This document shows positions 1 to 19,825 of a DNA stretch of 64,000 bases, piece after piece. Every line of letters starts with the position of its first letter. The stretch's first letter is position 1. Origin of the DNA: Candidatus Woesearchaeota archaeon (lineage in GTDB: Archaea > Nanobdellota > Nanobdellia > Woesearchaeales > ARS49); assembly GCA_037445145.1 (NCBI GenBank), contig JBBILB010000004.1, forward strand, positions 15,555 through 79,554, given 5' to 3'. The notes below the pieces were generated by a model, which made no database searches, was not told where the DNA came from, and worked only from the letters and a program-made list of their open reading frames with translations. Position numbers and translations under genes: made by a program.

Positions 1-10
1 GCGCGCCTGT

Positions 11-3000
11 TCATTTTTTCACCTTCCGCTCACTGAGCCATTCTGCGAGCTCGCGCTCAAGCTCCTTTTTATGCGTCCTGTAATATGCTGCGGTAATGCG
101 CAATTTTGCGAGGATTTCCTCAAGCTCTGCAGAAGTGAGCCTGCCTGCCTTCAAGACAGCAAGGCGCTCCCTAACAAGCCCCTTTTCTGCCGGAGTGAGC
201 CTTTCAAACAAAATTTTTCTCAAAAGCCTGAATGCCTCTGGCTCCTTCTGAATCGCGGCAAGAATGCCGGGAGCCTCACGTTTTGGAATCCTTCCGCTTA
301 GCAAATCCCTGAGCTTTCCAAACACATCCTCTGCAACAGGCACATTTTCCTTTTTGAGGCGGTCAGCAAGCTCAGCCATTGAAACCCAGTCCCTGTCCGT
401 AATGCCCGGCTCCTCCCTGCGGGCAATCCTGCGCAGCTTATCAATAACAGGAGGCACTGACTTTCTCGCAGGAGCCTTTGGCAAAGGCCTTGCAGGAATT
501 AATGGCGGAACCGCCTCTGCCTGCCTCTCAAGGTAATACTTGTACCCGATATAGCCGCCAATTCCAATCGCACCAAGAACAAGCAGAACAAGGAAAATCC
601 AGAGCAGTATCCTCAGCTTGCTTGGCGGGTGCGATATTGCATCAAGCGGGTTTGTGCCTTTCCCAATCTCAACCTTGTCATCCCAGCCGTCAAAGTCTGT
701 GTCTGGGTTTGTCGGGCTTGTGCCGTGCCTGTATTCCTCAAGGTTGGTGAGCCCGTCATTGTCAGGGTCTGCATCAGGCGCGCCCTCGCCTGTGCACAAT
801 ACGCTTCCAAAGTGCCTGATGCGCCAGCCGTCAGAAATCTCGTCGCCGCAGCTGAACTTCTGCGAGGGCGAGCAGCCGTTCTCGTCAGCAGCCTCATCCT
901 GCGGGGTGTTCGGGCACTTGTCCCTGTCATCAGGCACAAGGTCGCCGTCACGGTCGCGCTCGGGCTGGCACGTGCTTTCAATGCACATCAATCCCGCAGA
1001 ACAATCAAGGGTTGAGTGACAATTCTTGTTCTCGCCGCACTTGACCGGGCAAGATCCGCCACAGTCAACATCACTCTCTGTGCCTGAAAGTATTCCGTCA
1101 GCACACGTGTCTGGATTGCTGCAGAGCCCGAAATTGCAGCTTCCGCTCGCGCAGTCAGCATCACTGATGCATGTCTTGTTCATTCCGCACGGCAGGCACA
1201 CCCCTCCGCCGCAGTCAACATCTGTTTCATTCGCATTTTTCACATTGTCATCGCAGGCAGCAATTACGCATATGCCGTTATGACAGTATCCTGATATGCA
1301 GTCCGTGTTTGTGTTGCAGTTCGCGCCATCAAGGCAGCCGGGGCAGAGCCCACCGCAATCAATATCTGTTTCATCAGCGTCCTTTACTCCATTCTCGCAG
1401 GCTGTCGGCGCCTTCTCAAAGTCTATCGTGACCCCATTGCTTGCCATCGCATTGCCGCGCAGGCCAACAATGTTGACCGGGTAAACCTCAAACCGGTACT
1501 TGTTACCATCTGTCAGGTTAAGCCGGGTCACATAGAACGGCGTCGCATTGAGGTTTGTGCTAAGTGTCCAGTTGAGCACGGTCGTGTTGGCATGATATGT
1601 GAGCAGCCTGTAATAGTACGCACTAATGTTCGTCTCATTATCCACGCCAAGGAAGTTAAGCTGGAGCTGATCAGCAAAATAAGAGAACTCAGGCTCCTCA
1701 GGCAGGTTTGAGCTGTCATCAACAAAAAGCATTTCAGGAGGCGTCGTGTCAACAACCACAGGAATCTCAAGTGTCGCAATCTCATTCCCGGCGCCTGTGC
1801 TGCACTTCACAAACCACTTGTATGCACCAGAGCTTGTGACATTCACAGGCGCCACGTGCGCATAGCCGTACTCTCCCATCAGGACCGGCTCTGCATCAAT
1901 CGCCTCGCCCACATAACAGAATGAGCGCTTGTTTGTCTCAACCCGCAGGGCAAATTCGGTAGTGTTTGAGTAAGGCGGAGTCTGGCTTATTGCTGCAAAA
2001 GGCACGCCAAGGTCAACCCTGAACTTGACGGGCACTGTTGCAGAAGGCATCTCTGCAGTGTTCTTGCACGCAACATAATAAGTGTATTCTGTTGCATCCT
2101 GTGTTACGTTGATTTCAGCAGAATGGGACCTCTTTGGAATTTCATCAAAGCCGGAAAAGAGCCCGTTCATCAGAACAAACGGCACGTTTTCCGTGCTGTA
2201 CTTGCAGAAGCCCTCATCATCTGTCTGCACCTTGAGATAAGTCGTGAAAATGTCCTGTCCCGGCAAGCGACGCTCTATGATTACTTCCGGGTAAGCATAT
2301 GCTGACTTAATTACTGGCGGAGTCGGGTCAATGCGCAGCTCAAATGATTCCATCACAATATTGCCGCCTGCCTTGCAGTAAACGTAGAGCTTGTGGGTCT
2401 TCAGGTCGCCGACCGCAATCTTGTCAAAGTCAGGGATTTTATGCGTCACAGCCGTTTCTTCAGGGAATGCCCAAAGGAATTCATCAAATGCCTCTTCTGA
2501 TGCAGGCGCCGGCAGGTCATAGGAATACTTGCACACTGCCGTGCGCGAGGTCTCAACAACGATGTCAAACACGTACGAGGCGCTGACGCCCCAGCTTGGC
2601 TCCTTGAGCAGCATCATCATAGGCCCAAGGTCAACCCAGAAGCTTGATTTTCCGATTGCAGGATTGCCGGCAAGGTCCTCTGCCTGGACCCTGATGTTTT
2701 TCTTTCCGCCTGAAAGCCCTGCAACAGTTGTGCTGTAAGTCATTCCGTCTTCTGAAGCAGTCAGCATTGGCACAAGGTTCATTGTCACTTTTTTTGCGGC
2801 ATACTTTGATGTCCAAACCTCGTTCTCAAGCGTTGCAGCAAGCAAAGTCAACGGCTCATTGAACTGTATTGATATGTCAACTGAGCCAACATTAATGACT
2901 GTGCCGTCCTCTGGAATGATTGTTATGTCGCCAGGGGTTGTGTCAACTGTAATTGAAACACTGCCCTCTGCATCCATGAAGACGCCGTTTTTGTCCTTGG

Positions 3001-5092
3001 CGTTGAAAGTCAGGGTGTACTCTCCGTCCAATAAGGGCTTAAGCGGGATGAAAGTGTACTCATAATTCGCGCCGCTTGACGGGCTTGCCGTCACAGGCAT
3101 GACCTTGCTGCCAAGCACAAGCGCTGCAGAAGTCAGGATTGCGGGCTCATTGAATGACACAGTGATTACAGGAGTGTCTGCAATTGTGTAATATTTGCCG
3201 TCAACAAGCCTGCCCGGAGTCACAACAACCTCAAGCACTTTCGGACCTTGGCACCTGTCGCAGGCAATAATTTTCATTTCCTTGACAATACCAGGGTTGT
3301 TTGCGCGGTCAACACCATAATACCGCAAAGTATTTTCCCCAATAGACATTGTTGCAAGGACTTCCCTTCCGCCCTGCAAATAAAGGTCATTCACGTTTAG
3401 CATTGAATAATTTGTAGAGGCAAAATCAGACGGGCTCGTGCAGGATGATTCCTCGCCAACAACGCAGACACGCAGGCGGTAGCCCTGCCTGCCTTCCATG
3501 AACGCGCCGTCATCAGTTGCATTGCGCCTGTCAAGCATTTTTACAGCAAGCCAGTCAATCCTGTCAGTCCTGAACACTGACGGCACAAGGGTCACATTTG
3601 GCGGGAGATAGTCAAGCTCGCACTGCCTCCTCTCAGGGGCAGCCACTTTGAGCGCACAGTCAGGGACGCTGTCTGCATCGTGGTTTTTCACACAGCCCGC
3701 GCCTGCAATGTTCTGGCAGACACGTATGTTGCACGGGTCTGTGCTTGGAACCGCGACCGAGTTGTCAGCATTGAGCCTGATTCCGCCAGGAGGAGAGCCG
3801 CACTGCGATTCATTGTAGTCCATACATGCAGCAGCAGAACAAGGGTTGCTTTCCTGCGAGTTCTTGTCATAAACGCACAAAAATCCCGGGACAGTCAGTG
3901 CATTTGACTTTTCAGCAGTGCACTGGTCAAACACCTCATTGTAAGCGTCATTGTTCTCAAGCCCCAAAGTGCCTTTTGCCTTGCACCATGCGCAGTTTGC
4001 AAACCGCGTGTCAACGCAGACACCTATGCCAATGCCAGGAATCACGTCGCGCCACTCGCACACTCCGGCATGGCAATTGTCGCGCTCGCAAGCACCCTTT
4101 GACCGGTAATCCGCGCACACCATTCTCGGGCTGCACGCATAGCATTCATCAATCGAGCTTTTCGAGCGGTCATAAAAGCAGTAATTCTCGCCGTCTTTTT
4201 CACAGCCGGCAAGCGTGGAATACAACCCGAAAATCCCGCCCCTGTCGCACACCGTCTGGCCGATGCACATGACGCCTGCCTCATCAATGACGCACTGCTC
4301 TCCTGCCTGGCAGTTCACAGCAGGCGCCTGCTGGTAAAGCCGGTTTGATTCATCGCACGCCCAGCCGCGGTTGAATTTGTCCTGGAAAGCCGCAATAACT
4401 GCAGAGGGGAAATCAGCATCAAAAGCAGCAGGGGTTATTCCTGCATAGCCGTATGTCTTAAGGTATTGCTCAAAAAGGTCGTAATAATAATCACCAATGC
4501 AGAACTGCTCATAGCCCTTGTGCCAGCATTCAATGTCATTAAGCCTGCCTGACGCGACAGCAGGCTCTGACAAGCCTGAAACCCTGGAAGCCGAAACAAG
4601 CTTGTACGTGTAGTCAGTATTCCATTCCAGTTCTGGCGAAATGTCTGTGTAAAACCCTGTAGGGGCTGCCTCAGTCAGGCGGACAAAATCATCGCAGTCA
4701 TCGCCCTTGCACCGCGAAATCTCAACATAATAAGTCTGCGACGGGCATGGCAGGGAGTACGTGATAAGGAGTTGCTTTTTGCCTTTCACAGGCAGGACTG
4801 CAAGGTTTTGCGGCGCAGGCTTGTACTCAGGAGAGTCGCAGTTGACAGGTGGCGGGATAACGACAGGAGGGGCAAAAATTGCCTCGCAAATATCATCGCA
4901 GGATTCCCCAAGCGCAGGAAGCTGTGATGTGAACTTCCAGTATGATTCATCGCAGAAAACACGGTCTGACACAAGCGAGCCATTAAACACAATCGGGTCG
5001 CAGCAGCACCCCGGCTGAGCAAATGCGGGCTGCGCACATGCCATTGCGTACAACAACGCCGCCAGTGCTACGATCATCAATATTTTTTTCAT
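11..5092 (-). CDS. Giant (1693 aa) cysteine-rich type-I cell-surface protein. Order: signal peptide, Cys-rich N-terminal region, Ig-like beta-sandwich repeats, three 8-Cys modules, TSP3-like Asp-rich motifs, one TM helix, ~170-aa cytoplasmic tail
   Basis: Uninterrupted 1693-aa ORF. N-terminus MKKILMIVALAALLYAMACAQPAFA is a Sec-type signal. Ig/SbsA-like repeats are visible (PVITVSFNEP..DGEYTLTFNAKDKNG; ISIQFNEPL..AEDLAGNP). Asp-rich motifs are DRDGDLVPDDRDKCPN and DPDNDGLTNLEEY..NPDTDFDGWDD. The TM helix is LRILLWIFLVLLVLGAIGIGGYIGY. The start overlaps the upstream stop (TAATG at 5092). Confidence 0.85.
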   Translation of the reverse strand: MKKILMIVALAALLYAMACAQPAFAQPGCCCDPIVFNGSLVSDRVFCDESYWKFTSQLPALGESCDDICEAIFAPPVVIPPPVNCDSPEYKPAPQNLAVLPVKGKKQLLITYSLPCPSQTYYVEISRCKGDDCDDFVRLTEAAPTGFYTDISPELEWNTDYTYKLVSASRVSGLSEPAVASGRLNDIECWHKGYEQFCIGDYYYDLFEQYLKTYGYAGITPAAFDADFPSAVIAAFQDKFNRGWACDESNRLYQQAPAVNCQAGEQCVIDEAGVMCIGQTVCDRGGIFGLYSTLAGCEKDGENYCFYDRSKSSIDECYACSPRMVCADYRSKGACERDNCHAGVCEWRDVIPGIGIGVCVDTRFANCAWCKAKGTLGLENNDAYNEVFDQCTAEKSNALTVPGFLCVYDKNSQESNPCSAAACMDYNESQCGSPPGGIRLNADNSVAVPSTDPCNIRVCQNIAGAGCVKNHDADSVPDCALKVAAPERRQCELDYLPPNVTLVPSVFRTDRIDWLAVKMLDRRNATDDGAFMEGRQGYRLRVCVVGEESSCTSPSDFASTNYSMLNVNDLYLQGGREVLATMSIGENTLRYYGVDRANNPGIVKEMKIIACDRCQGPKVLEVVVTPGRLVDGKYYTIADTPVITVSFNEPAILTSAALVLGSKVMPVTASPSSGANYEYTFIPLKPLLDGEYTLTFNAKDKNGVFMDAEGSVSITVDTTPGDITIIPEDGTVINVGSVDISIQFNEPLTLLAATLENEVWTSKYAAKKVTMNLVPMLTASEDGMTYSTTVAGLSGGKKNIRVQAEDLAGNPAIGKSSFWVDLGPMMMLLKEPSWGVSASYVFDIVVETSRTAVCKYSYDLPAPASEEAFDEFLWAFPEETAVTHKIPDFDKIAVGDLKTHKLYVYCKAGGNIVMESFELRIDPTPPVIKSAYAYPEVIIERRLPGQDIFTTYLKVQTDDEGFCKYSTENVPFVLMNGLFSGFDEIPKRSHSAEINVTQDATEYTYYVACKNTAEMPSATVPVKFRVDLGVPFAAISQTPPYSNTTEFALRVETNKRSFCYVGEAIDAEPVLMGEYGYAHVAPVNVTSSGAYKWFVKCSTGAGNEIATLEIPVVVDTTPPEMLFVDDSSNLPEEPEFSYFADQLQLNFLGVDNETNISAYYYRLLTYHANTTVLNWTLSTNLNATPFYVTRLNLTDGNKYRFEVYPVNIVGLRGNAMASNGVTIDFEKAPTACENGVKDADETDIDCGGLCPGCLDGANCNTNTDCISGYCHNGICVIAACDDNVKNANETDVDCGGGVCLPCGMNKTCISDADCASGSCNFGLCSNPDTCADGILSGTESDVDCGGSCPVKCGENKNCHSTLDCSAGLMCIESTCQPERDRDGDLVPDDRDKCPNTPQDEAADENGCSPSQKFSCGDEISDGWRIRHFGSVLCTGEGAPDADPDNDGLTNLEEYRHGTSPTNPDTDFDGWDDKVEIGKGTNPLDAISHPPSKLRILLWIFLVLLVLGAIGIGGYIGYKYYLERQAEAVPPLIPARPLPKAPARKSVPPVIDKLRRIARREEPGITDRDWVSMAELADRLKKENVPVAEDVFGKLRDLLSGRIPKREAPGILAAIQKEPEAFRLLRKILFERLTPAEKGLVRERLAVLKAGRLTSAELEEILAKLRITAAYYRTHKKELERELAEWLSERKVKK
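968..1399 (-). repeat. Three tandem 46-50 aa 8-cysteine modules inside the giant protein gene (coding repeat)
   Basis: CENGVKDADETDIDCGGLCPGCLDGANCNTNTDCISGYCHNGIC / CDDNVKNANETDVDCGGGVCLPCGMNKTCISDADCASGSCNFGLC / CADGILSGTESDVDCGGSCPVKCGENKNCHSTLDCSAGLMCIESTC. Cys spacing is conserved, and the module boundaries were mapped onto Cys codons at 1399, 1255 and 1105. Confidence 0.9.
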
Positions 5093-6393
5093 TAGTCAGG
5101 GCACCCCGTGGTGCGGAGCTTCAAAACCTGATAGTCTTCTGTCCTGCCGCCATCAGACACATAAACGCGCATTCTGAAAGGCTCGCCTGCAGGGGGCGTG
5201 GTGATTTCTCCCGGTGATGCAGGCTCTGTCCTAAACGTAACAAGGTCCTCGTCAGGGTCAACCGCCCTTAGTTTTGCAGTCCATGTTTCAGGCCATTTTA
5301 TCACAAGCTCATCGCCAGTGAGGAATATTGACGGCTTTCCCTCGCAGGTGCCAAGCGGAATGAACTCATACCTGTCAAGCGCCGTCTGGTTAATCCACAC
5401 CAGCGCAGGATACCTGTTTGCCCTGAGAATCCAGAACTCCAAAGGCTTGCCGCGCAATCTTGACTCTTCATCCCTAACAATGATTATGTCATCAGTTCCC
5501 TGGTCAAAATCATTCCTGAAAACATTCTTGACAATTGTGACAGGGGTTGCTGCAGTGCTCAGGTTGCGGGGATCAAATGTTGCGTCATTTATTTCGCCAA
5601 GCACAATGCTTTGGACAAAAAGGTAGAATTTTGCAAGGTGGACAGGATAGCCAAGCGAGAACTGGTCAAGAGTTGTGTTCCTTTTTGTCGTAAGGTCTGT
5701 AATGTTGACCTGCCAGCGGACAAGCACTGTGAAGAACTGCTCTGTTTGAATCTGGGTGATGTTTTCAGCAATCATCACGCTAACATTAGGCCTGCCTGCG
5801 GCAATTGAAAGCCCCTGCGCCCCAAAAACCGCCCAGTCAGTGCATTTTGGAAGGTTAAAGCTGATGTATGACTCGAGCTGCTCCTGGATTGAGTCCCTCC
5901 CCGGCTTGAACAGCGGCGGGAGCAATGATTTTCCATAATAACCGCCGTAAAATTCCTTCATGACAGATCCTGTTGTCTGGTTGAACACGTAAGGAAATGA
6001 GGGGAAGGGGTACTCGTCCGGCTCTGCATAATAAAGCGTGCCAATATCCTGCACAGGCCTTGTTATCAGGTAGCTGACATTGAGCCCCTCGTATTCAGCA
6101 TACCTCGAGCCCTTTTCCGCGGGCTGGACATCAGGAGTCAGGCCGCCCTGCATCCTGTACAAGACACCCCCCTGCTTGCCAAGAAGCTCAAGCCCTGCCA
6201 TTGTCGTTATGTCAAGGCAGGACTGAACATATTCCCTTACCGGCTGGACAGCAACCTGCCTGAGCCTTTGCTGCCCTGCCTCCGGCTCTGTCTGCATTGT
6301 TGCGGTCTGCGTACCGAGCCATATGACAAGGATTGCCGCGAACAGCAATATGATGCCCATGGTTATCATAAGCGTGAGCTGTGCATTTTTCAT
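5092..6393 (-). CDS. Hypothetical membrane-anchored/secreted protein (433 aa) with a pilin-like or signal-anchor N-terminus
   Basis: ORF 5092..6453 trimmed to ATG 6393, which forms an ATGA overlap with the upstream stop at 6390. N-terminus is MKNAQLTLMITMGIILLFAAILVIWLG (short basic head plus hydrophobic helix). Many N-x-S/T sequons. No family recognised. Confidence 0.7.
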   Translation of the reverse strand: MKNAQLTLMITMGIILLFAAILVIWLGTQTATMQTEPEAGQQRLRQVAVQPVREYVQSCLDITTMAGLELLGKQGGVLYRMQGGLTPDVQPAEKGSRYAEYEGLNVSYLITRPVQDIGTLYYAEPDEYPFPSFPYVFNQTTGSVMKEFYGGYYGKSLLPPLFKPGRDSIQEQLESYISFNLPKCTDWAVFGAQGLSIAAGRPNVSVMIAENITQIQTEQFFTVLVRWQVNITDLTTKRNTTLDQFSLGYPVHLAKFYLFVQSIVLGEINDATFDPRNLSTAATPVTIVKNVFRNDFDQGTDDIIIVRDEESRLRGKPLEFWILRANRYPALVWINQTALDRYEFIPLGTCEGKPSIFLTGDELVIKWPETWTAKLRAVDPDEDLVTFRTEPASPGEITTPPAGEPFRMRVYVSDGGRTEDYQVLKLRTTGCPD

Positions 6394-7565
6394 GGTCTCA
6401 ATTTTCCTGTCAGGGCAGGCCATGCCCTGACAATCGGGCTTGCTTCCAAACAATCATTCTCGTATCCTGGCTCGCACCTGTGCCTTGCAATAATGTTGAA
6501 GCCCGTGCCTGTCTGGTTTTCGCAGAATGCCCTTGTGTCATACACCTTGACAAGGTTAAGGCAAGGGTCTTTGCCAAGGTTGATATTGGAATACCTGACA
6601 CCGATATAGTCTATTGGCACAGGGCTTGACTCTTTGTAAGGCAGGATTGTGTATTCCGGTCTCAGATTTTTTTCAAGGAAGCCAAAAATGGCCTTGTTGC
6701 CGTTCTGCGCGAGATAAATGTGGTTGAACAACCGCGACCTTGGGAAATAAAGGAAGTTCATGCCGGGATTTTCAGGCTTGTGCAATACCTGCATTACGTA
6801 ATAACTCATTGTTGCCATTGGGCCTGTTATTTTTTCCAAAATTCCTGCCGGGGGCAGTGAAAGGCTGCCGTTTGGAAGATAAATGACTGCATTAAGCGAG
6901 GGGCTGTACCAGACATTTGAGCCGCAGGACGCAAAGCCCGTAATTTCAGGATTGACATTCTTGCACAAATCCGCACTCTTGTCCAGCGCAAGCAGGAATG
7001 AGCGCGTTGTGTGGTTTACTGGAACATTAAGCGTTGCTCCCACGGCAATTGCTGCAGGAGTCTTGAGGATGCAGATGCTGTTAATGCAGGGGACTGCCTT
7101 ATTGCCAATGTTGCAGCTGCTGCCAAGATATTCCTCAACAAGGACATTTTTGACCAGATAATCATACTTGTTAAGCACAGCTTCGTACGAGTCGCAGAAC
7201 AAGGTGTGGCGGTCAGGGGAAGTTTCCTGCGCGAGCTGGAGAAGCTGGAGCGCAAGCCTCTTTGTGCGGGTTGTCCAGTTCCCATTCTCGCAGACATAGT
7301 CAAGGATGCTCTGGGAATTGTTGACGCACCTTGGCCATAGCCGTTCATCGCCCAACTCAAACCAACGCAAAATATCCCCGTCATAGCTGTCATTGCCAAG
7401 CGTGTGCAAAAGGCACTGGGTCTCATTCGCGCACGCGCCGCCCATTGACAAGTCCCATGAAAAACTGACTGCCACCCTCTGCCAGTCAGCGCCTATGTCA
7501 GCAAGCACCCCAGGCAAAAAAACTGCTACAAATACCAGCAATGCCGCAAATGTTGTTCTTCTCAT
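6390..7565 (-). CDS. Hypothetical secreted cysteine-containing protein (391 aa)
   Basis: ORF 6390..7691 trimmed to ATG 7565, preceded by a GAGGGTG SD-like site. MRRTTFAALLVFVAVFLPGVLA is a Sec-type signal peptide. It lies 28 nt downstream of the preceding gene. Confidence 0.7.
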   Translation of the reverse strand: MRRTTFAALLVFVAVFLPGVLADIGADWQRVAVSFSWDLSMGGACANETQCLLHTLGNDSYDGDILRWFELGDERLWPRCVNNSQSILDYVCENGNWTTRTKRLALQLLQLAQETSPDRHTLFCDSYEAVLNKYDYLVKNVLVEEYLGSSCNIGNKAVPCINSICILKTPAAIAVGATLNVPVNHTTRSFLLALDKSADLCKNVNPEITGFASCGSNVWYSPSLNAVIYLPNGSLSLPPAGILEKITGPMATMSYYVMQVLHKPENPGMNFLYFPRSRLFNHIYLAQNGNKAIFGFLEKNLRPEYTILPYKESSPVPIDYIGVRYSNINLGKDPCLNLVKVYDTRAFCENQTGTGFNIIARHRCEPGYENDCLEASPIVRAWPALTGKLRP

Positions 7566-7593
7566 CACACCCTCTTTTTTTGAAAATACTCTG

Positions 7594-9363
7594 CTATTCC
7601 TCCCTGGGCATCCTGCAGATAAACCCTTCCTCTCCAATCCTGTAGTATGAATTGAGCTGCTGGCAGGCAGTGCCGTTCCAGCACTGGTCATAAGCGCAGC
7701 AACCTGAAACCGCTATGCCCTTAATTCCTGTAAGTGCAGGAGACCATTTTATGCTCTTGTTAATCATTCCAGCAAGCTCGCTCGTGAAATCCCATTTGCC
7801 GTTCGGCTGGCACACTGCGTGCGGCTTTGTGCTCTCATGAATATTGGCAAGGACTGCGCCGCAGGGGGTGACGCTGTTGTTCACAAGCACGTCATGCGGC
7901 GGCTGCCTGAACACGTCCTTGAGCTGGAGGATTGTGCTTGACTGCGGGATGCGGCAGCCAAAGAACTGGCCCTTGTAATTAATCACGCGGTCAGCGCCAA
8001 CAGGAAGGTAAGGCACAAAGTCCCCTGTCGGGATAAACACCTTGTTCCAGCAGCCGCCAAGCCCATTCGGGTATGCGGGGTCATTGTAGTATTCCTTGAT
8101 GTCATCATCCTCACTGCAGCAATAAGTCCCTGTCCAGCTGTACCCCGCAGAAGTGCAACTCGGCTCATCCTTAGAATCAAGATCTTTAGTCCAGTCGCCG
8201 TCAGAAGCGCAGTAATAAGTGTCCTCAAAAGAAGGGTTTGTCATCCCCATATCAAGACCATTGATTGATGAGAATGGCCCTGATATGCCGCCGCACTCAT
8301 AAACAGTCCTGTCAGAGCAGGAATACTCATGCGAGACCCTGCCAAAATTGACAATCCTGAACCCGCCAAAATCCTTGGTTATGCCTTCAAGCTGGCTTCC
8401 GCAGCTGAAGAATGCAGTGCCGTTTGAAACAACAGAGCCGTCAGGACAATTCATTTCATGAATTTCACCAAGTTCTGCCAAAGGCACCCACTGCCATTCA
8501 TCATTCACGTTCTTGCCGCAAATGGAATCAATTGTGGTGTTTTCAACAACAAGCTGGTATTTCGTGCATTTCTTAAAATAATTCCGCTCAGTGCATTCCT
8601 GCCTTGTGCTATGGGGAATCCTGCCAACAAACTGGCAGCTTGTGAAGTTAACACCGCAGCAATACCCATTGTACCAGTCACCGCCCTTGTCAACACAGTC
8701 CCTATAAGTTCCTTCGTTGACATCGCAAACTTGATTGTTGTTTGTGTCAGCGCAGACAAAAACCTCATCACTAGGGTTCTGTGTCTCATTGCGCACGTAA
8801 TCCCAGTCATCTGTCTCCGTGTTCTCAACCCACGCAAGCACCCCAGGAATGCCTGAATAAACCCTGAAAAGGTTTGATGCAGGAGAAACATTAACCAGTG
8901 AGCTGATTATGCCAAGCGAAAGAGGGTCAGCATCTCTTGAAACACTACCCCAAATCTCATAAGGAACCATCCTTGCTTCAAGGAATGTCATCCCTGTGCT
9001 GTGGCTGCCAATATACCCTGAATAAGTAAAGTTTTCTGCAGGCGTATTTCCAAGATACCGCTCAAAAATAAGGCCGATTCCAGAGCTTGCCTTAAATACC
9101 CAGGACGTGGTGTAAACCTTGGCGCCGCCCTGCCACAATTCAAAAATCATGCTGTTGTGGTTATGGGAATTGTGCGAAATGTGCGGAGAAAAAACAACCT
9201 TGTCAAAAGTCTTGTTCATACCAAAAAAAACATTGCCGGCAGGACAGCACATCCCGCCTGTTGTCCTGTAAACCTCAACAACCTGCACCTCAAAAGGCAT
9301 TGCAAAAACAGCACAGCTAAGCGCTATTAAGAGAATACTTAGTATTACTGCTGTTCGTTGCAT
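7594..9363 (-). CDS. Hypothetical secreted cysteine-rich protein (589 aa)
   Basis: ATG 9363 lies 6 nt after GAGGAGG. Signal peptide is MQRTAVILSILLIALSCAVFA. Recurring W-x-G-x-Y-C-C motifs (GDWYNGYCCG, YSWTGTYCCS) and SGCCAYDQCWNGTAC. First gene of the four-gene operon. Confidence 0.75.
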   Translation of the reverse strand: MQRTAVILSILLIALSCAVFAMPFEVQVVEVYRTTGGMCCPAGNVFFGMNKTFDKVVFSPHISHNSHNHNSMIFELWQGGAKVYTTSWVFKASSGIGLIFERYLGNTPAENFTYSGYIGSHSTGMTFLEARMVPYEIWGSVSRDADPLSLGIISSLVNVSPASNLFRVYSGIPGVLAWVENTETDDWDYVRNETQNPSDEVFVCADTNNNQVCDVNEGTYRDCVDKGGDWYNGYCCGVNFTSCQFVGRIPHSTRQECTERNYFKKCTKYQLVVENTTIDSICGKNVNDEWQWVPLAELGEIHEMNCPDGSVVSNGTAFFSCGSQLEGITKDFGGFRIVNFGRVSHEYSCSDRTVYECGGISGPFSSINGLDMGMTNPSFEDTYYCASDGDWTKDLDSKDEPSCTSAGYSWTGTYCCSEDDDIKEYYNDPAYPNGLGGCWNKVFIPTGDFVPYLPVGADRVINYKGQFFGCRIPQSSTILQLKDVFRQPPHDVLVNNSVTPCGAVLANIHESTKPHAVCQPNGKWDFTSELAGMINKSIKWSPALTGIKGIAVSGCCAYDQCWNGTACQQLNSYYRIGEEGFICRMPREE

Positions 9364-9434
9364 GCACAACCTCCTCTTTTAAATAGATAGGGCGCCCTTG
9401 GTTTAAAAAGCTTATCTCATATTATTACCGAAAG

Positions 9435-9444
9435 ATAAATATAA
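9435..9444 (+). promoter_or_regulatory. TATA-box-like element for the 9466 gene
   Basis: ATAAATATAA lies 22-31 nt upstream of ATG 9466. Confidence 0.4.
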
Positions 9445-9465
9445 TGAGGCTTTTTCGCAGCAGGC

Positions 9466-10035
9466 ATGAAAGAAGTTGCAATAATTCTTGTCATCCTGCT
9501 TGCTATAGCAGGAGGGCTTGCATGGTATTTTCTCCAGCCCGCTGCAATTCCTGACGCGGAAATCCGGTCGTTTGCTGATGCCTGCATTCAGGAAAGCAGC
9601 AGCTTCGCAAGATTTGTCCAGGCAGTACGTTCAAATGACCCTGCACTCTGCGCACAGCAGACGGCAGTCATGATGAAATTATGCATGGCGCGCATCAGCA
9701 AGGACTCCAGGGTCTGCGACGCTGCAGAGCCTGACATAAAGCCCGCGTGCCTGGCGCTTGCTGCTGATGACAAGGCGCAATGCCCTGCAGGCGATTTCCT
9801 GTGCAAGGCGCTGCTTGGCGACATGCAGGCATGCAGGGAAATGGATTTGGTGCGGTTTGCGTGCGAAAAGGCGCTGGCAGGAAATACAGACTATGCCGGC
9901 TCGGAAAGGATGGAAGAGGACTGCAAACAGCTTGCGGTCCACATCATTGCGCTGGAAAGCGGGGACAAGCGCAACTGCAGAAAAATCAGGAATGAAATTC
10001 TCAGGGAAGAATGCATGAGCATCCTCAAAGGCTAA
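9466..10035 (+). CDS. Hypothetical N-terminally anchored protein with Cys-pair helical repeats (189 aa)
   Basis: MKEVAIILVILLAIAGGLAWYF TM helix, then repeated C..(8-15)..C units (ALCAQQTAVMMKLCMARI, NCRKIRNEILREECM). Divergent from the Cys-rich operon. Confidence 0.6.
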   Translation: MKEVAIILVILLAIAGGLAWYFLQPAAIPDAEIRSFADACIQESSSFARFVQAVRSNDPALCAQQTAVMMKLCMARISKDSRVCDAAEPDIKPACLALAADDKAQCPAGDFLCKALLGDMQACREMDLVRFACEKALAGNTDYAGSERMEEDCKQLAVHIIALESGDKRNCRKIRNEILREECMSILKG

Positions 10036-10618
10036 AAGCAGATGCGGCCTCTGCATGATGCATTCCAAGCATTACAAAAAACGAAGCAAGGTCGTGAGGC
10101 GAGCGCATCTTCCAAGGGTCTTTTGCAAAAGAGCCAATGAGCATCCTGACCTTGTATTTTCTGCAAAGCATTATGTTCTGCATCATCCTGCCAATAAGCT
10201 GGGCTCGTTGGCTGCCTCTTGATGCGAGAATGTCTGCAAAGCTGAATCCGATAGCGACCTTGTTTTTCCTTGCAAGCGAGCAAAGCACGTGGTTAAGACC
10301 TGAGCCGCGCTGATGGATATAGTCTTTTGGCTGGGTGCTTTCAGCGCTGAACAAAACATCAGCAGAGCCCTGCTCAAGCACAACCCTGTCCTGGTCAGAA
10401 CATTTGACAAAAACAGTAACGCCTTTGATGCGGAGCTGTTTTGCCTTTTTTGGCTCAGACAGCACCGCAGTCCTGACTTTCAGCCCTGCTGGCGCAATAG
10501 GTGCTTTCTTTGCGACCTCGACAGAGGGATAAACAAGCACAAGCCCTGCATAGCCAAGCTTCTGGGCTGTGCTGAAGAATTCCTGCTCGTTTTTTTCAGG
10601 GAAAACAATGTCAATCAT
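10025..10618 (-). CDS. rnp3: RNase P protein component 3 (Rpp30 family)
   Basis: GLNHVLCSLARKNKVAIGFSFADIL..QRAQLIGRMMQNIMLCRKYKVRMLIGSFAKDPWKMRSPHDLASFFVMLGM aligns with my recollection of Pyrococcus Rpp30 ([42 protein letters not shown]). Confidence 0.75.
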   Translation of the reverse strand: MIDIVFPEKNEQEFFSTAQKLGYAGLVLVYPSVEVAKKAPIAPAGLKVRTAVLSEPKKAKQLRIKGVTVFVKCSDQDRVVLEQGSADVLFSAESTQPKDYIHQRGSGLNHVLCSLARKNKVAIGFSFADILASRGSQRAQLIGRMMQNIMLCRKYKVRMLIGSFAKDPWKMRSPHDLASFFVMLGMHHAEAASAFSL

Positions 10619-10640
10619 GAAGCAAACGACTGAAGATAGT

Positions 10641-10650
10641 TATTTAAAGA
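10641..10650 (+). promoter_or_regulatory. TATA-box-like element
   Basis: TATTTAAAGA lies 21-30 nt upstream of ATG 10671. Confidence 0.45.
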
Positions 10651-10670
10651 TTGTGCCTTAGTTGAATCCC

Positions 10671-11381
10671 ATGCAGGAACGCATACAAAAAATCCTTGCA
10701 AGGGCAGGAATTGCCTCACGGAGAAAATGCGAGGAACTGATAGCTGGAGGAAGAGTGAGCGTGAATGGCAAAACAGTCAGGCTCGGGGACAAAGCAGATG
10801 CTTCTGTTGATGACATACGCGTTGACGGCTCGCGAATTCCAAAACAGGAACCAAAAAAATATTATGCACTGAACAAGCCAAGAGGGATAGTGAGCACTGT
10901 CAGCGACCCAAAAGGCAGGCTCACAGTAATGCACTACGTCCCAGCAGGGATCAGGGTTTATCCTGTGGGAAGGCTTGACCGCGATGCAGAAGGGCTGATA
11001 GTGATGACAAATGACGGCGAACTCGCAAACAGGCTCATGCACCCGCGTTACGAAACAAAAAAAACATACCACGCAACGCTGACTGGCGAGATTGACAGGA
11101 GGGATGTGCGCAGGCTGAAAAAAGGGGTCAGGGTCGGAGGCAGACTTGTGGTGCTTGACAAGGTCGCAGTTCACACGCCTTCGCACGTCGAAATTTCTTT
11201 GCACGAGGGAAGGAAGCACATAGTAAAGCAATTGTTCAGAAAGCTCGGATACACCGTCGCAAGGCTGAAAAGGACGCAGATAGCAAACATTTCTCTGAAA
11301 GGCTTGCCTCCCGGGGCTTGCAGGAAACTAACCAAGGCCGAGCTTGCCGGGCTTCAAAGGATTTTTAGCCAAAGCAAGTAA
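10671..11381 (+). CDS. RsuA/RluB-family pseudouridine synthase with N-terminal S4 domain
   Basis: RIQKILARAGIASRRKCEELIAGGRVSVNGK (S4 domain). YYALNKPRGIVST; GRLDRDAEGLIVMTNDGELANRLMHPRYETKKTY (catalytic Asp motif). The ORF opens at TTG 10662; ATG 10671 fits the TATA spacing better. Confidence 0.9.
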   Translation: MQERIQKILARAGIASRRKCEELIAGGRVSVNGKTVRLGDKADASVDDIRVDGSRIPKQEPKKYYALNKPRGIVSTVSDPKGRLTVMHYVPAGIRVYPVGRLDRDAEGLIVMTNDGELANRLMHPRYETKKTYHATLTGEIDRRDVRRLKKGVRVGGRLVVLDKVAVHTPSHVEISLHEGRKHIVKQLFRKLGYTVARLKRTQIANISLKGLPPGACRKLTKAELAGLQRIFSQSK

Positions 11382-12221
11382 TTCGCACACCTTGCAAAAA
11401 CCCTTGCTTGAGACCTCTCCGCAGTTTTTGCACAAGGAATGGTGCTGTTTTGCTTTTTTATTGCTTTGGTTTTTCAGAAAGGTCTTGACAATATTTTCTT
11501 TGATTACGGGATTTTGTTTTTCCTGCTCGTCAAGAAAACCCCTCACGGCAAACCTGAAGCCGTCAACAGCGCAAGGGCAACGGCAGTACTTGACAGGAAA
11601 GCCCATTATTTTTGAGTAGCTGACAACCTCTTTTTCTCTGACTTCGTACAATGGCTTTACCCTTTGAACAAAAAGAGCTTCATTCAAGGAATTGCTTGCG
11701 GGTCCGAGCCTTGCATTAAGCTCAGGCATGTTCTTCAGCAGGTTCATGACAATTGATTGGGCTTCATCATCAAGAGTGTGTCCAACCGCAAGCTTTTTTG
11801 CATGGATTTCCCTTGCTTTTTTGTTAAGCAAATACCTCCTGAGCACTCCGCAAACAGTGCAGGACCTGCATTTCTTGATTTTGTCACGCAAATAACACAA
11901 TGATGCGCCAAAAACCTTCCTGAAAGATACTTCATGCAGCCTGACATTGAGCTTTTTGCAGGTTGTCCTGAGATTCTCAAGATTTTCCTGGGTGTAGCAG
12001 CCAATATGGGAGTCAATGGTTATTGCCTCAATTTTATAGCCGAGCTTTTTAAGTATGAAAAGAAGCGTTGTGCTGTCCTTTCCGCCACTGGCAGCCACGG
12101 CTATTTTGTCCTGTTTTGAAAAAAGCCGGTATTTCTTTATAGCATCCCTGACTTTTTTTTCGACAAGAGCAAGGAATTTCTCATCTGCTTTCAAGTTTTT
12201 TTCTTTCATTTTCAACATCAT
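11328..12221 (-). CDS. PP-loop ATPase, TtuA/NcsA-like tRNA 2-thiolation family
   Basis: VAASGGKDSTTLLFIL PP-loop; CRSCTVCGVLRR and CRCPC / CKNCG..CKVC cysteine motifs. It lacks the N-terminal zinc finger I recall in TtuA. The 3' end overlaps the convergent pseudouridine synthase gene by 54 nt. Confidence 0.75.
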   Translation of the reverse strand: MMLKMKEKNLKADEKFLALVEKKVRDAIKKYRLFSKQDKIAVAASGGKDSTTLLFILKKLGYKIEAITIDSHIGCYTQENLENLRTTCKKLNVRLHEVSFRKVFGASLCYLRDKIKKCRSCTVCGVLRRYLLNKKAREIHAKKLAVGHTLDDEAQSIVMNLLKNMPELNARLGPASNSLNEALFVQRVKPLYEVREKEVVSYSKIMGFPVKYCRCPCAVDGFRFAVRGFLDEQEKQNPVIKENIVKTFLKNQSNKKAKQHHSLCKNCGEVSSKGFCKVCELLALAKNPLKPGKLGLG

Positions 12222-13017
12222 TTCCGCTCATTCCTGACAATGGCCGCAAAACAACCGCATTTATCGCAATATTTCTTGCTTTTCCAAATGAATCATTAAC
12301 CACAACAGCCCCTGCTTTGTGCTTTTTGCAAATTCCATCAAGCTCCTCAATGGATTTTATGTTCCATATGACAAGCTTGTCGGGTGAAAATTTTTGCAAA
12401 AGGCTTAGGTCTGTCTTGTTAAGCACTGCTGGAATGATTTTGCACCCGCGCTTCATTGCAAGCACTGCAGCAACAACAGATGCGCTATCCTCAATAAGCG
12501 CAACAGCTGCCCCCTGGCAGCCAACAGGCATTCCGCCAGGACCCGCAACACGGTCAGTAAGGATGTAAATCACACCACAGATTATCTCAATACGGATTTC
12601 TATTGATGGGTTTTCCATTTTCACTTTTGCACTTGATGCTTTCCTTAGCATTTCGCCAAGCTTTATGCAGACATCCCTTGAACTCATCGGAAAATCCTTG
12701 TCAAGACGCTGGCAGCTTATCCTGAAAGAATCGGTTTTCAACAATTTAAAATGTGTATTTGCAGCAGAGAACGCATCCTCAATGGCTTTTCCTGCACGTA
12801 TCGCGTGCGAGAATGATGAAATCCCAAACACAGTCTTCAGGCAATTGCAGTCTTCATCTGTCTCGATAAGTATCCTGCCAAATACCCGCTTAACTTTTGA
12901 GAATTTAACATTGCTTGAGCGCAGCTTTGACTCTATGTTTTTCACAAGCGCGTTCTCAAAACACACCCTGTTTTTTCCCTTGATCCCTATCTCATCATAC
13001 CGTACAAGCACAGGCAT
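12181..13017 (-). CDS. ThiI-like THUMP-domain protein with degenerate PP-loop (278 aa)
   Basis: MPVLVRYDEIGIKGKNRVCFENALVKNI is a ThiI N-terminal ferredoxin-like/THUMP signature. After GMPVGCQGAAVAL the expected SGGxDS reads IEDSAS. The protein is shorter than canonical ThiI. Its 3' end overlaps the next gene by 41 nt. Confidence 0.7.
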   Translation of the reverse strand: MPVLVRYDEIGIKGKNRVCFENALVKNIESKLRSSNVKFSKVKRVFGRILIETDEDCNCLKTVFGISSFSHAIRAGKAIEDAFSAANTHFKLLKTDSFRISCQRLDKDFPMSSRDVCIKLGEMLRKASSAKVKMENPSIEIRIEIICGVIYILTDRVAGPGGMPVGCQGAAVALIEDSASVVAAVLAMKRGCKIIPAVLNKTDLSLLQKFSPDKLVIWNIKSIEELDGICKKHKAGAVVVNDSFGKARNIAINAVVLRPLSGMSGNDVENERKKLESR

Positions 13018-13060
13018 AACAATGTTTTTCCTCTGCAGAATTAAATACTATTGCGAAACC

Positions 13061-13070
13061 TTTTTAAATA
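13061..13070 (+). promoter_or_regulatory. TATA-box-like element for L34e
   Basis: TTTTTAAATA lies 21-30 nt upstream of ATG 13091. Confidence 0.5.
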
Positions 13071-13090
13071 CCCCTCTGGAAGGTTTGCGT

Positions 13091-19823: not shown

Positions 19824-19825
19824 TC

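Follow-up and report, generated by a model that had tools for sequence, protein, structure and literature searches.

A woesearchaeal operon pairing a 1693-aa glycoprotein with five predicted pilin-signal proteins probably encodes a cell-surface attachment apparatus named in no database

At one end of a 64,000-nt stretch of woesearchaeal DNA (the window, in its full length) lies a run of genes for large secreted proteins, which raises the question of what structure these proteins build and how much of it the window contains. A first-pass annotation had described a four-gene operon ending in a giant gene, and had pointed to giant surface proteins of small-genome, episymbiotic archaea; the organism is a Woesearchaeota (DPANN) archaeon. 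The operon was found to pair a 1693-aa glycoprotein with five proteins carrying predicted pilin-type signals, and it probably encodes a cell-surface attachment apparatus that is named in no database. The features in the window are as follows.

9364..9465, minus strand: g1 upstream intergenic region, common to g1 and a divergent 189-aa gene
7594..9363, minus strand: g1, 589 aa, secreted, Cys-rich
7566..7593, minus strand: g1-g2 spacer, 28 nt, containing a GAGGGTG Shine-Dalgarno sequence
6390..7565, minus strand: g2, 391 aa, secreted, accessory member
5092..6393, minus strand: g3, 433 aa, predicted prepilin-type N-terminus
6313..6393, minus strand: g3 residues 1-27 (leader, [A/G/S]↓Q junction, hydrophobic segment), candidate class III signal peptide
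11..5092, minus strand: g4, 1693 aa, type I membrane glycoprotein
1..14, minus strand: first 14 nt of g5 (ATGAACAGGCGCGC, encoding MNRRA...), cut by the window edge

The four reading frames, g1 to g4, lie exactly where they had first been placed, and the proposed junctions (the 28-nt gap with its GAGGGTG, the g2/g3 overlap at ATGA and the g3/g4 overlap at TAATG) were all found in the sequence. Chance reading frames were excluded, as each of g1-g4 has homologues, with E values down to 0. The operon does not end in the giant gene: the g4 stop codon (window 13-11) overlaps the g5 ATG (window 14-12) as ATGA, and three more coupled genes follow g5. The operon in the window is identical, base for base, to positions 5730-15082 of the source contig (L003), on which the coupled unit g1-g8 encodes proteins of 589, 391, 433, 1693, 175, 360, 162 and 158 aa, the last four (g5-g8) beyond the window edge; g5/g6, g6/g7 and g7/g8 overlap, and g9 (959 aa) follows g8 after a 32-nt gap. 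Since the g4 stop overlaps the g5 start and the g5-g8 junctions overlap as well, the operon reaches past the window, and g1-g4 are the 5' half of a translationally coupled operon of at least eight genes.

Three Sec signals and one basic-hydrophobic anchor had been assigned to g1-g4. The signal peptides of g1, g2 and g4 stand, but the g3 anchor is better called a prepilin-type (class III) N-terminus. It reads MKNA↓QLTLMITMGIILLFAAILVIWLG; an alternative ATG offered by gene callers at window 6423 gives a 443-aa protein with a 14-residue leader. A search at E <= 1e-3 returned a g3 family of 5820 representatives at 50% identity, for which there is no Pfam model; of 70 diverse members, 0 matched a relevant Pfam family. 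The g3 N-terminus was compared among 28 close relatives and 147 more distant, diverse ones; 119 of the latter have A, G or S at -1 and Q at +1, with leaders of 2-45 residues, and all 14 metagenome orthologues fit the motif with Q at +1. By profile comparison g3 resembles g7 over ~120 residues (75% probability) and, at 63% probability, the N-terminus of g8. The AF2 model of g3 (pLDDT 84) has an alpha/beta ectodomain and a C-terminal cadherin-like beta-sandwich in which a DPDED motif is invariant; fold and profile matches were weak cadherin and Ig ones only. Judged by its sequence, g3 is a member of a very large family with a prepilin-type signal and is no Cys-rich partner.

The same design recurs beyond the window edge. 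Both g3 and g5-g8 begin with a short basic leader, a G, A or S, a Q and ~22 hydrophobic residues, g6 departing in having I, V or F instead of Q (motif [KR][GA]↓[IVF][ED]). In g8, K or R stands at -2 in 66 of 75 sequences, A, G or S at -1 in 74 and Q at +1 in all 75, behind a leader of 0 to >20 residues; Q is also found at +1 in 34/34 g7 and 23/28 g5 sequences. These N-termini appear to be of the class III (prepilin) kind and to share the +1 Gln seen in Methanococcus EppA substrates: M. maripaludis pilins that EppA processes have class III signals that end in Gly and a conserved +1 Gln (PMC3875500). Two other signal types were considered and rejected, a signal peptidase I site because the [G/A/S]↓Q motif stands before the hydrophobic stretch, and a Tat signal because RR is not conserved in g3 and g5-g8. 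In the AF2 model of g8 (pLDDT 89), helices 8-32 and 38-57, jointly about as long as pilin alpha-1, are followed by two short helices and a C-terminal four-stranded sheet.

No known pilin was matched. The pilin and class III models PF04021, PF07790 and PF07963 matched none of the five N-termini in Pfam and NCBIfam searches, even at E <= 10 on isolated N-terminal peptides; positions +2 to +4 of g5-g8 are occupied by charged or polar residues, for which FlaFind would probably reject them. Among solved structures, neither Foldseek searches with the g3 and g8 models (best E = 4e-3 and 0.1, respectively) nor profile searches against the PDB recovered a pilin, an archaellin or a pseudopilin. Genes for a T2SSE ATPase, a T2SSF platform protein or a Peptidase_A24 were found neither in the window nor among 137 downstream neighbour ORFs at 17 related loci.

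An uncleaved signal anchor would equally present an N-terminal helix followed by an ectodomain. The main rival reading is accordingly an envelope scaffold, with no filament and no type IV machinery, in which g4 is the core structural S-layer-like or canopy glycoprotein, held by its C-terminal TM anchor, and g3 and g5-g8 are uncleaved type II assembly or stalk subunits. The absence of pilus machinery nearby and of any matched pilin fold or family favours this reading, which we nevertheless consider unlikely; a plain signal anchor needs no invariant [G/A/S]↓Q behind a freely varying leader in five families.

Nutrient capture was also weighed. The bindosome of Sulfolobus combines sugar-binding proteins bearing class III signals with small pilin-like BasABC proteins, and g3, with its class III-type N-terminus and its large, globular ectodomain of alpha/beta type, might similarly be a ligand-binding ectoprotein with g5-g8 as small assembly pilins. 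DPANN archaea depend on scavenging, which would suit such a role, and g7 has a weak NCBIfam match to BasB (E = 0.037) in its N-terminal region only. This match is far below cut-off and covers just the hydrophobic helix, neither the operon nor its conserved neighbourhood contains an ABC transporter or a solute-binding-protein domain, and the giant Cys-rich membrane protein has no bindosome counterpart, so that we regard this reading as very improbable.

The composition of the window proteins was compared with that of 19 housekeeping ORFs of the window. All four had been called Cys-rich, which is true of g1 (4.9%), g2 (3.6%) and g4 (4.55%) against a background of 1.32%, but not of g3, whose 4 Cys (0.92%) fall below it. 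Their reported richness in N-x-S/T sequons was confirmed, g1-g3 having 1.7-1.85 and g4 0.95 per 100 aa versus 0.34 in the housekeeping ORFs, and their description as extracellular or membrane proteins was supported. The CC/CCC motifs GYCCG, TYCCS, SGCCAY and PGCCCDP are all present, as is a fifth, GMCCPA, at g1 residue 39.

Behind a Sec-type signal (..CAVFA↓MP), g1 has 29 Cys, four CC pairs and 10 sequons; three vicinal pairs (C235/236, C415/416 and C555/556) are invariant. It has no match in Pfam, NCBIfam or the PDB. Its homologues form 29 clusters, all from Woesearchaeota where named, and in 5 of these LamG (PF13385), a lectin-like module, is present as an insertion. The fastest-evolving member of the operon, g1 ranges from 579 to 1396 aa among relatives and is 42-48% identical to its counterparts at loci L006-L008, against 56-65% for g3-g7, as would suit a variable part facing outwards from a constrained scaffold. 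The g2 protein (14 Cys, 7 sequons, Sec-type signal ..GVLA↓DIG) was without match in family searches and was found in its upstream place at 12 of the 19 metagenome loci long enough to show it.

The giant protein is divided as follows, the last segment being assigned from a hydropathy scan.

3233..5014, minus strand: g4 residues 27-620, GCC[C/T][D/N/E]P motif after the signal peptide, FN3-like segment, large Cys-rich region
1448..3232, minus strand: g4 residues 621-1215, Ig-like/Big_13 domains, three ~95-aa two-Cys beta-domains, sequon-dense FN3-like domain
629..1447, minus strand: g4 residues 1216-1488, three 8-Cys modules, then TSP3-type Asp-rich Ca-binding repeats
14..628, minus strand: g4 residues 1489-1693, single TM helix (~1490-1518) and ~175-aa charged helical cytoplasmic tail

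All the elements first described for g4, namely Ig-like repeats, 8-Cys modules, Asp-rich motifs, one TM helix and a tail, were recovered. Big_13 was matched at residues 636-718 (E = 1.2e-9), and a profile search against the PDB matched Lap adhesin, SiiE-like Ig domains and titin FN3; residues 1101-1200, within the FN3-like domain, hold 6 sequons. The three modules share the pattern C-x-NG-x-KD-x-ETD-x-DCGG..., and the TSP3_bac (7.8e-4) and TSP_3 (1.7e-3) matches, sub-threshold in g4 itself, are backed by TSP3_bac matches in 7 of 12 orthologues, reaching 4.2e-14. Residues 27-620 have neither a Pfam nor a PDB match; they contain ~40 invariant Cys, and their GCC motif is kept in 7/7 orthologues. 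Across six orthologues 69 of 77 Cys are conserved. Tail identity is 57-78% for L001 and L006-L008 but only 17-28% for L009 and L010.

Several of these features bear on the envelope scaffold. The length of g4 (1674-1696 aa in close and mid-distance relatives, 2265 aa in L010) and the uniform conservation of its ectodomain, in which no hypervariable region was seen, would suit a structural protein, as would its heavy sequon load and C-terminal TM anchor, which are typical of many archaeal S-layer glycoproteins; a Sec signal, Ig-like beta-domains and core-genome status are shared with these too. However, no S-layer family was matched by g4, which differs in its 4.5% Cys with 69 conserved Cys, its TSP3 and 8-Cys modules and its 175-aa tail, the last being atypical of S-layer proteins; the Ig, FN3, TSP3, cadherin and LamG content of the operon is adhesin-like. 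One related locus has an S_layer_C (PF05124) protein encoded separately nearby, a hint that the S-layer protein is the product of another gene.

The order g3-g4-g5-g6-g7-g8 was kept in every relative examined, down from 86% to 23% g3 identity, and the operon always adjoined the RNase P p30 gene. In a metagenome sample of 76 loci found with a g8 profile, and counting only loci with room upstream, the same order and strand were seen upstream of g8 for g7 in 64/65, g6 in 40/41, g5 in 28/36, g4 in 26/29 and g3 in 13/20. The operon is vertically inherited in Woesearchaeota, and by sequence comparison its conserved core is g3, g4 and g5-g8, half of which lies outside the window; ahead of this core stand one or two Cys-rich Sec-secreted proteins (g1, g2). 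A g4 rate near that of housekeeping neighbours, and a position within a housekeeping gene block fixed in all relatives, again favour the envelope scaffold. The rate of g3-g7 is almost as low as that of the adjacent genes for RNase P p30 and RsuA (61-73% identity), which agrees better with a core structural apparatus than with a variable adhesin.

These comparisons also bear on the first-pass model of a self-contained, disulfide-stabilised adhesion complex of four proteins, the smaller three being partners or assembly factors of g4. The coupling of g1-g4 and their co-occurrence in close and mid-distance relatives, the conserved Cys of g1, g2 and g4 and the adhesion-type domains speak for it. 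Co-occurrence as such survived in every relative examined, except that g2 was not recognisable (missing or replaced) in L009 and L010, the most distant ones. The four genes are nevertheless not the unit: g2 is dispensable there, g1 varies two-fold in size, g3 is low in Cys and of a prepilin-type family, the coupled unit runs on into g5-g8, and these, not g1 and g2, are most strictly conserved with g4. We consider the four-protein model improbable.

With moderate confidence we favour a pilin-type, minor-pilin-like set that forms an attachment structure together with Cys-rich glycoproteins. The pilin-type character, overlooked in the first pass, would mean assembly by, or modelled on, type IV filament machinery. 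The sequences themselves show which genes are present, how they are coupled and conserved, the shared N-terminal motif, the enrichment in Cys and sequons and the domains; cleavage, filament assembly, protein association and an adhesive role we infer along the following lines. The g3 and g5-g8 proteins would be inserted N-in via their hydrophobic N-termini, cut at [G/A/S]↓Q by a class III (EppA/PibD-type) signal peptidase and joined through their N-terminal helices by type IV filament machinery, both encoded elsewhere. The product would be a short pilus or pseudopilus, or else a minor-pilin-like priming or tip complex. This structure may display or dock the disulfide-rich glycoproteins g1 and g2. 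With a TM anchor and a cytoplasmic tail of its own, g4 cannot be carried by a filament, and it would be a fixed envelope partner in the cell's own membrane, with its tail in the cytoplasm. The function would be attachment to surfaces or partner cells; the adhesion-type content comprises Big_13, FN3, TSP3 repeats, the cadherin-like DPDED domain and LamG in g1 relatives. Adhesion or cell contact, as first proposed, thus remains the most plausible role, but the mechanism shifts away from a free disulfide-linked complex.

Among known systems, the Epd pili of Methanococcus maripaludis (EppA-processed EpdA-E, pilin-like MMP0600/0601/0709) are similar in having several pilin-like genes per operon, large ones too, and basic leaders ending in a small residue before a conserved +1 Gln (PMC3875500). 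Adhesin-like proteins also occur alongside; some DPANN have Epd-type (system 1) loci, and in archaeal filament loci several pilins are often accompanied by large Ig-rich adhesin-like proteins (bioRxiv 10.64898/2026.04.22.720090). In contrast to Epd, DUF361/PF04021 was not detected in the woesearchaeal proteins, the +5 Glu is absent (g3, g5) or displaced (+3 in g8, +6 in g7, +2 in g6), and the operon and its surroundings contain no gene for an ATPase, a platform protein or EppA; nothing equivalent to the 1693-aa Cys-rich TM protein is encoded in the Epd cluster. Large extracellular multi-Ig/FN3 proteins of the arCOG05616 and arCOG07037 type are likewise encoded beside several predicted pilins and have been proposed to serve adhesion or envelope passage (bioRxiv 10.64898/2026.04.22.720090). 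Adjacency to ATPase and platform genes, both lacking here, is the defining feature of those loci, and the ~600-aa Cys-rich N-terminus, 8-Cys modules, TSP3 repeats and tail of g4 are not described there, the comparison being by description only.

The bacterial fimU-pilVWXY1E operon and the T2SS GspH-I-J-K tip likewise have four to five tandem pilin-type genes of unequal size, g6 (360 aa) and g3 (433 aa) being the large members, cf. GspK and PilW; this is analogy only, with no sequence or fold homology detected. The resemblance extends to large Sec-secreted, Ca-binding, non-pilin adhesin-type proteins encoded with the pilin-type genes, to a location apart from ATPase and platform genes, and to a variable outer component, here g1, on a conserved core. 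As an archaeon, however, the organism has no outer membrane or secretin, and g4, the largest protein here, differs from PilY1 in having a membrane anchor and a cytoplasmic tail. The SPEARE proteins of Ca. Nanohaloarchaeum antarcticus, large multi-domain secreted or anchored proteins, reportedly mediate host contact. They resemble g4, by description only, as large multi-domain surface proteins of a host-dependent small-genome archaeon (the DPANN organism of PMC6642349), whereas g4 is much smaller, conserved in length and sequence rather than lineage-specific, and set in a fixed operon with pilin-type genes.

Read by eye, the region upstream of g1 (9364..9465) contains A/T-rich TTTAAA-type boxes, with a GAGGAGG Shine-Dalgarno sequence directly before the g1 ATG, and is likely the putative operon promoter.

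The four minus-strand ORFs that the first-pass annotation described as a complete operon, here called g1 to g4, were found in the ORF list and the sequence at the coordinates it gave, as were the junctions between them: a spacer of 28 nt containing GAGGGTG between g1 and g2, then overlaps of ATGA (g2/g3) and TAATG (g3/g4). The operon does not end at g4, as had been supposed. The minus-strand bases at window 14-1 are ATGAACAGGCGCGC, where the TGA that ends g4 shares bases with the start codon ATG of the next gene (g5), and g5 to g8 follow on the source contig (L003, Logan contig SRR11582170_7793), whose positions 5730-15082 are identical at every base to window 11-9363. Beyond g8 lies a longer gene, g9, whose N-terminus gave weak PD40/TolB beta-propeller matches in Pfam/NCBIfam scans. 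An HMM of g9 recognises it in only 2 of 76 loci retrieved from metagenomes with a g8 profile; many of these loci have a plus-strand ORF of 600-960 aa after g8. The earlier observation was mostly correct, shortened by the window edge and mistaken in one detail, the cysteine content of g3.

Genes of the operon (g1-g4 from the ORF list and sequence), with Cys content and sequons per 100 aa where determined. The baseline, from 19 housekeeping ORFs of the same window, is Cys 1.32% and 0.34 sequons per 100 aa.
g1: window 9363 to 7594, minus strand, 589 aa; Cys 4.9%, sequons 1.70
g2: window 7565 to 6390, minus strand, 391 aa; Cys 3.6%, sequons 1.79
g3: window 6393 to 5092, minus strand, 433 aa; Cys 0.92%, sequons 1.85
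g4: window 5092 to 11, minus strand, 1693 aa; Cys 4.55%, sequons 0.95
g5: beyond the window on L003, 175 aa; overlaps the preceding gene
g6: beyond the window on L003, 360 aa; overlaps the preceding gene
g7: beyond the window on L003, 162 aa; overlaps the preceding gene
g8: beyond the window on L003, 158 aa; overlaps the preceding gene
g9: L003 17653-20532, past the left edge of the window, 959 aa; 32-nt gap after g8

All four proteins in the window had been called cysteine-rich. This holds for g1, g2 and g4 and not for g3, since its 0.92% Cys lies below the housekeeping background. Every CC/CCC motif reported previously was located in the sequence, and an additional one, GMCCPA, is present at g1 residue 39. 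Within g1 near its 5' end (window ~9215-9235) there is an eight-T run on the coding strand (aatgttttttttggt); as archaeal terminators can consist of oligo-T tracts, this run could attenuate transcription.

The N-termini of g3 and g5-g8 each consist of a short basic leader, a small residue, Q (I, V or F in g6) and about 22 hydrophobic residues. All five thus have the features that define a class III signal, namely a basic leader, G/A/S at -1, about 20 hydrophobic residues and a cleavage site N-terminal to these. Within each family the leader varies in length while the residues after the junction (marked here by a slash) are almost invariant, as in MRRSKG/QMEIMGL and MRRVKAAPAKLAGLRAKGTKG/QMEIMGL, which have the same mature start, or MKKAQ.. 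and MGQRQSLLAGFGSRRSPKRA/QIKMFET. Among metagenome orthologues of g8, the junction has K/R at -2 in 66 of 75, A/G/S at -1 in 74 of 75 and Q at +1 in all 75; the +1 Gln is also found in 34/34 orthologues of g7, 23/28 of g5 and 14/14 of g3. In the g3 of the window, -2 is N and -3 is K, most of its relatives having K/R at -2. A profile search of 1.84 billion representatives (clusters at 50% identity) returned 5820 g3-family proteins at E <= 1e-3 and 548 at E <= 1e-30. The pattern [..][G/A/S]Q[ILVM][TSA].. occurs in the first 45 residues of 119 of the best 147, behind leaders of 2-45 residues, and most of those without it are evidently truncated gene calls. The start of g3 is itself ambiguous. The ATG at window 6393, chosen in the first-pass annotation, gives the ATGA overlap and a 4-residue leader, and that at window 6423, used in public gene calls, gives a protein of 443 aa with the leader MACPDRKIETMKNA/Q and a 34-nt overlap with g2; both are compatible with a class III leader. 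Because gene callers take the upstream start, exact look-ups returned no record of the 433-aa form; nor was there one for the PolD large subunit of the window. A signal peptidase I (SPase I) site was rejected because the motif precedes the hydrophobic segment, and a Tat signal because RR is not conserved.

The N-terminal architecture of g3 and g5-g8 is therefore that of class III (prepilin) signal peptides, cleavage itself being a prediction. The main rival explanation sees the five N-termini as uncleaved anchors and the whole set as an envelope scaffold. Similar junctions are known from EppA-processed pilins of M. maripaludis, in which leaders of 5-13 residues end in Gly and are followed by a conserved +1 Gln, and EppA-type (DUF361) pilins of Methanococcus also have Glu at +5 (PMC3875500). 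The +1 Gln is nearly invariant in g3, g5, g7 and g8 too, whereas the -1 residue is G, A or S rather than Gly alone, and Glu is found not at +5 but at +3 in g8 (invariant), +6 in g7 and +2 in g6, and is absent from g3 and g5. None of Class_IIIsignal PF04021/DUF361, Pilin_N PF07790, N_methyl PF07963 or the NCBIfam pilin models matched the full proteins at E <= 0.1, nor did any pilin or class III Pfam model match ten isolated N-terminal peptides at E <= 10. The FlaFind pattern is [KRDE][GA][ALIFQMVED][ILMVTAS]x3. In this form it is fitted by most g3 relatives (KKAQLTL) and not by g5-g8, because these have G, E or K at +2 to +4.

The AF2 model of g8 (pLDDT 89) has helices at 8-32 and 38-57, two short helices and a four-stranded sheet, and that of g3 (pLDDT 84) has helices at 2-28 and 38-73, alpha/beta domains and a C-terminal beta-sandwich with an invariant D379-P-D-E-D383 motif. 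As modelled, both topologies appear compatible with a pilin-like "helix plus head". Foldseek gave no significant match for either model and recovered no pilin or archaellin (g3 against PDB and viral libraries, g8 against PDB). Weak cadherin/Ig hits were confined to the g3 C-terminus, which resembled protocadherin weakly at most (fold E = 4e-3, TM about 0.15; profile E = 0.07), and there was no cadherin-like Pfam match in g3 or in diverse members of its family. Besides the weak propeller match of g9, Pfam and NCBIfam scans of all nine proteins gave only Big_13 and weak TSP3 matches in g4, and no S-layer model of either collection matched g1-g4. When g1, g3, g4 and g8 were compared with solved structures (phmmer and profile searches against PDB), Ig/FN3 domains were obtained for g4 alone; g1 and g8 returned nothing and g3 weak matches at most. 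Using hhalign, no paralogy was detected among g1, g2 and g4. Among the pilin-type proteins, profile similarity was moderate only: g3 resembles g7 at 75% probability and the N-terminus of g8 at 63%.

The 64-kb window, the adjoining 10 kb of the source contig and 137 ORFs downstream of g8 in 17 related loci contained no secretion ATPase (FlaI/PilB family), platform protein (FlaJ/TadC/PilC family) or Peptidase_A24. The co-located ATPase and platform genes by which MacSyFinder/arCOG define an archaeal type IV filament (TFF) locus are accordingly missing from the regions covered. Pilin and minor-pilin operons are frequently unlinked from their machinery, so its absence nearby is compatible with a pilin model.

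The operon lies in a conserved position within the genome. The rest of the window encodes archaeal housekeeping functions, including RNase P p30, PheRS, Pelota, RFC, Cdc6, PolD, MCM, SecY and a YidC-like protein. Although the region is otherwise gene-dense, Rfam and ARAGORN scans of its 64 kb yielded no tRNA, rRNA or other Rfam family. Four related loci (L006-L009) have g1-g8 in the same order immediately after the RNase P p30 gene; their g1 proteins are 43%, 37%, 34% and 29% identical, respectively. The order also holds in L010, where g3 identity is only 23%; there the first gene encodes 1396 aa and the giant protein has 2265 aa, and the series of 169/363/169/148 aa is retained. The g2 protein is unrecognisable in L009 and L010, and g1 ranges from 579 to 1396 aa among relatives, with LamG (PF13385) present in five g1 clusters. 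In the 76 metagenome loci, upstream genes were placed by per-family HMMs, and wherever the contig was long enough they had the same order and strand.

Genes found upstream of g8, among the metagenome loci with room for them.
g7: 64/65 loci
g6: 40/41 loci
g5: 28/36 loci
g4: 26/29 loci
g3: 13/20 loci
g2: 12/19 loci

A mobile island was rejected because synteny with the housekeeping neighbours is conserved in the related loci. Identity to L006-L008 is 56-65% for g3-g7, compared with 61-73% for RNase P p30 and RsuA, 78-84% for PheS and 42-48% for g1. Such a near-housekeeping evolutionary rate, together with the fixed genomic position, favours a core structural role under the pilin and scaffold models alike. 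In GTDB-species genomes the only g3 match was JAWCLR010000001, a "Candidatus Woesearchaeota archaeon" MAG, at 86% identity. Every homologue of g1, g3 and g8 that carries a name belongs to Woesearchaeota, and "Candidatus Woesearchaeota" was the sole name present when cluster members of distant g3 relatives were looked up.

The domain architecture proposed for the giant protein g4 was upheld. Its Ig-like repeats are represented by Big_13 (PF19077), which scores 39 bits at residues 636-718 (cut-off 27; E = 1.2e-9) and is present in 7/12 orthologues, and an FN3-like domain at residues 1136-1220, likewise backed by the orthologues, matched titin FN3 in a profile search of PDB. Three 8-Cys modules occupy residues 1216-1375, and a single TM helix at about 1490-1518 is followed by a tail of ~175 aa. 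The Asp-rich, Ca-binding-like motifs, of the TSP3 type D-x-D-x-D-G-x-x-D-x-x-D, are visible at residues ~1376-1400 and 1438-1470. They score below threshold in the window protein (E = 7.8e-4 and 1.7e-3), and the TSP3 assignment is strengthened by TSP3_bac in 7/12 orthologues (best E = 4.2e-14). On this basis g4 carries TSP3 repeats, for which Ca binding is a prediction. Residues 27-620 contain about 40 invariant Cys and gave no match in Pfam or in PDB sequence and profile searches. Across six orthologues 69 of the 77 Cys are conserved, and identity is even along the ectodomain. A GCC[C/T][D/N/E]P motif at residues 27-31 (window 5000-5014), 2-8 residues past the predicted signal-peptide cleavage site, is found in every orthologue (L001, L006-L010) and could serve for lipidation, metal binding or an intermolecular disulfide. 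Its G-C junction resembles the -1/+1 positions of a lipobox, but -3/-2 do not fit. A similar GG-x-CCP was observed near the mature N-terminus of g1. The g4 tail is 57-78% identical in closer relatives and 17-28% identical in L009 and L010, where that of L010 is K/E/P-rich and of low complexity. With a membrane anchor and a tail of its own, g4 is less likely to be cargo of a filament than a fixed part of the envelope or a docking component.

Taken together, the best-supported reading is that the operon would encode a surface apparatus built around pilin-type subunits. Its conserved core would consist of g3, g4 and g5-g8, and g1 and g2 would be peripheral, more variable, secreted, disulfide-rich glycoproteins, g1 being sometimes lectin-bearing. 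The first-pass annotation had proposed an extracellular, disulfide-rich DPANN complex, probably for adhesion, which agrees with this reading; it had overlooked the pilin-type module and how far the unit extends. A parallel is the bacterial minor-pilin/PilY1 operon, in which 4-5 unequal pilin-type genes lie beside genes for large Sec-secreted Ca-binding proteins and apart from the ATPase genes. The T2SS GspHIJK set has the same layout, and archaeal filament loci with several pilins and large Ig-rich adhesin-like proteins (bioRxiv 10.64898/2026.04.22.720090) are a further parallel. In all three cases the likeness to g1-g8 is a functional analogy rather than a demonstrated homology. A more specific proposal, which we consider rather unlikely, is that the operon encodes a host-contact apparatus of Woesearchaeota, an archaeal counterpart of the minor-pilin/PilY1 tip complex. 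Here g3 and g5-g8 would prime and cap a thin type IV-like filament presenting the variable, lectin-bearing, Cys-rich g1 and g2. The conserved g4, which has a cytoplasmic tail, would span the membrane at the contact site and serve there as a platform for docking or signalling. If this were true, a major uncultured DPANN lineage would have a signature component in the g3 family, which comprises about 5800 clusters at 50% identity and lacks a Pfam model.

Full-text literature searches turned up no account of this operon. We also weighed the MoxR/vWA "novel secretion system" (Makarova et al. 2015, PMC5898192) and ruled it out because its components differ from those of the operon. Makarova et al. 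noted that DPANN genomes hold unrecognisable pilins, but beside FlaI/TadC genes, and listed a few DPANN-specific secreted "dark matter" families, with one of which g3 may coincide (PMC6393860). Loci combining archaeal pilin-type proteins with an adhesin-like protein are already known; new here are how widely the set is conserved, the Cys-rich TM protein of 1700 aa, the absence of linked machinery and the size of the unannotated g3 family. The eight to nine genes form a syntenic set that is deeply conserved and has no database annotation. In it, pilin-type subunits occur together with a secreted protein that is variable and lectin-bearing and with a membrane glycoprotein of ~1700 aa that is disulfide-rich and constrained. 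With g3 (5820 representative clusters), g8 (86 or more clusters at 90% identity) and g4, it includes at least three large unannotated families, and pilin-type signals with +1 Gln reach well past the families covered by current models. Woesearchaeota belong to the most widespread DPANN archaea; we know of no cultured member, and to our knowledge the molecular basis by which DPANN recognise and hold their partners is largely unknown. In cryo-ET of one DPANN co-culture contact structures are visible, their proteins being still unidentified (PMC11329633). The operon genes are concrete, testable candidates for a DPANN contact apparatus.

Other surface-protein genes were observed nearby. A divergent gene on the plus strand (window 9466-10035) encodes 189 aa with an N-terminal TM helix, many Cys and no family match. 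It has its promoter region in common with g1, and a gene of 106-191 aa is found at its position in L005-L008; it possibly belongs to the functional neighbourhood of the operon. A second surface-protein cluster, with no Pfam match, lies at window 19188-26140, and related loci have 211-aa and ~195-aa genes in the equivalent position.

Genes of the second surface-protein cluster.
Minus strand, two genes: 211 aa (D/Y/N-rich) and 199 aa (extremely Y/S/D-rich), secreted, low-complexity
Plus strand, first gene of a coupled set: 392 aa, prepilin-like N-terminus MINVRRRG/QASGSAAATLIGLITLLLVF
Plus strand, next gene: 494 aa, multi-TM
Plus strand, then three genes of similar size: 307-322 aa, lipobox-like N-termini LSGC, FSGC and VTAC

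Among the 137 ORFs downstream of g8 in related loci (L013-L086) were two with SLT transglycosylase domains and others with Amidase_2, Amidase_3 and Peptidase_M15_3. Peptidoglycan-degrading enzymes are unexpected in archaea, and these neighbours could indicate bacterial partners or prey. One further ORF of the 137 carries an S_layer_C domain.
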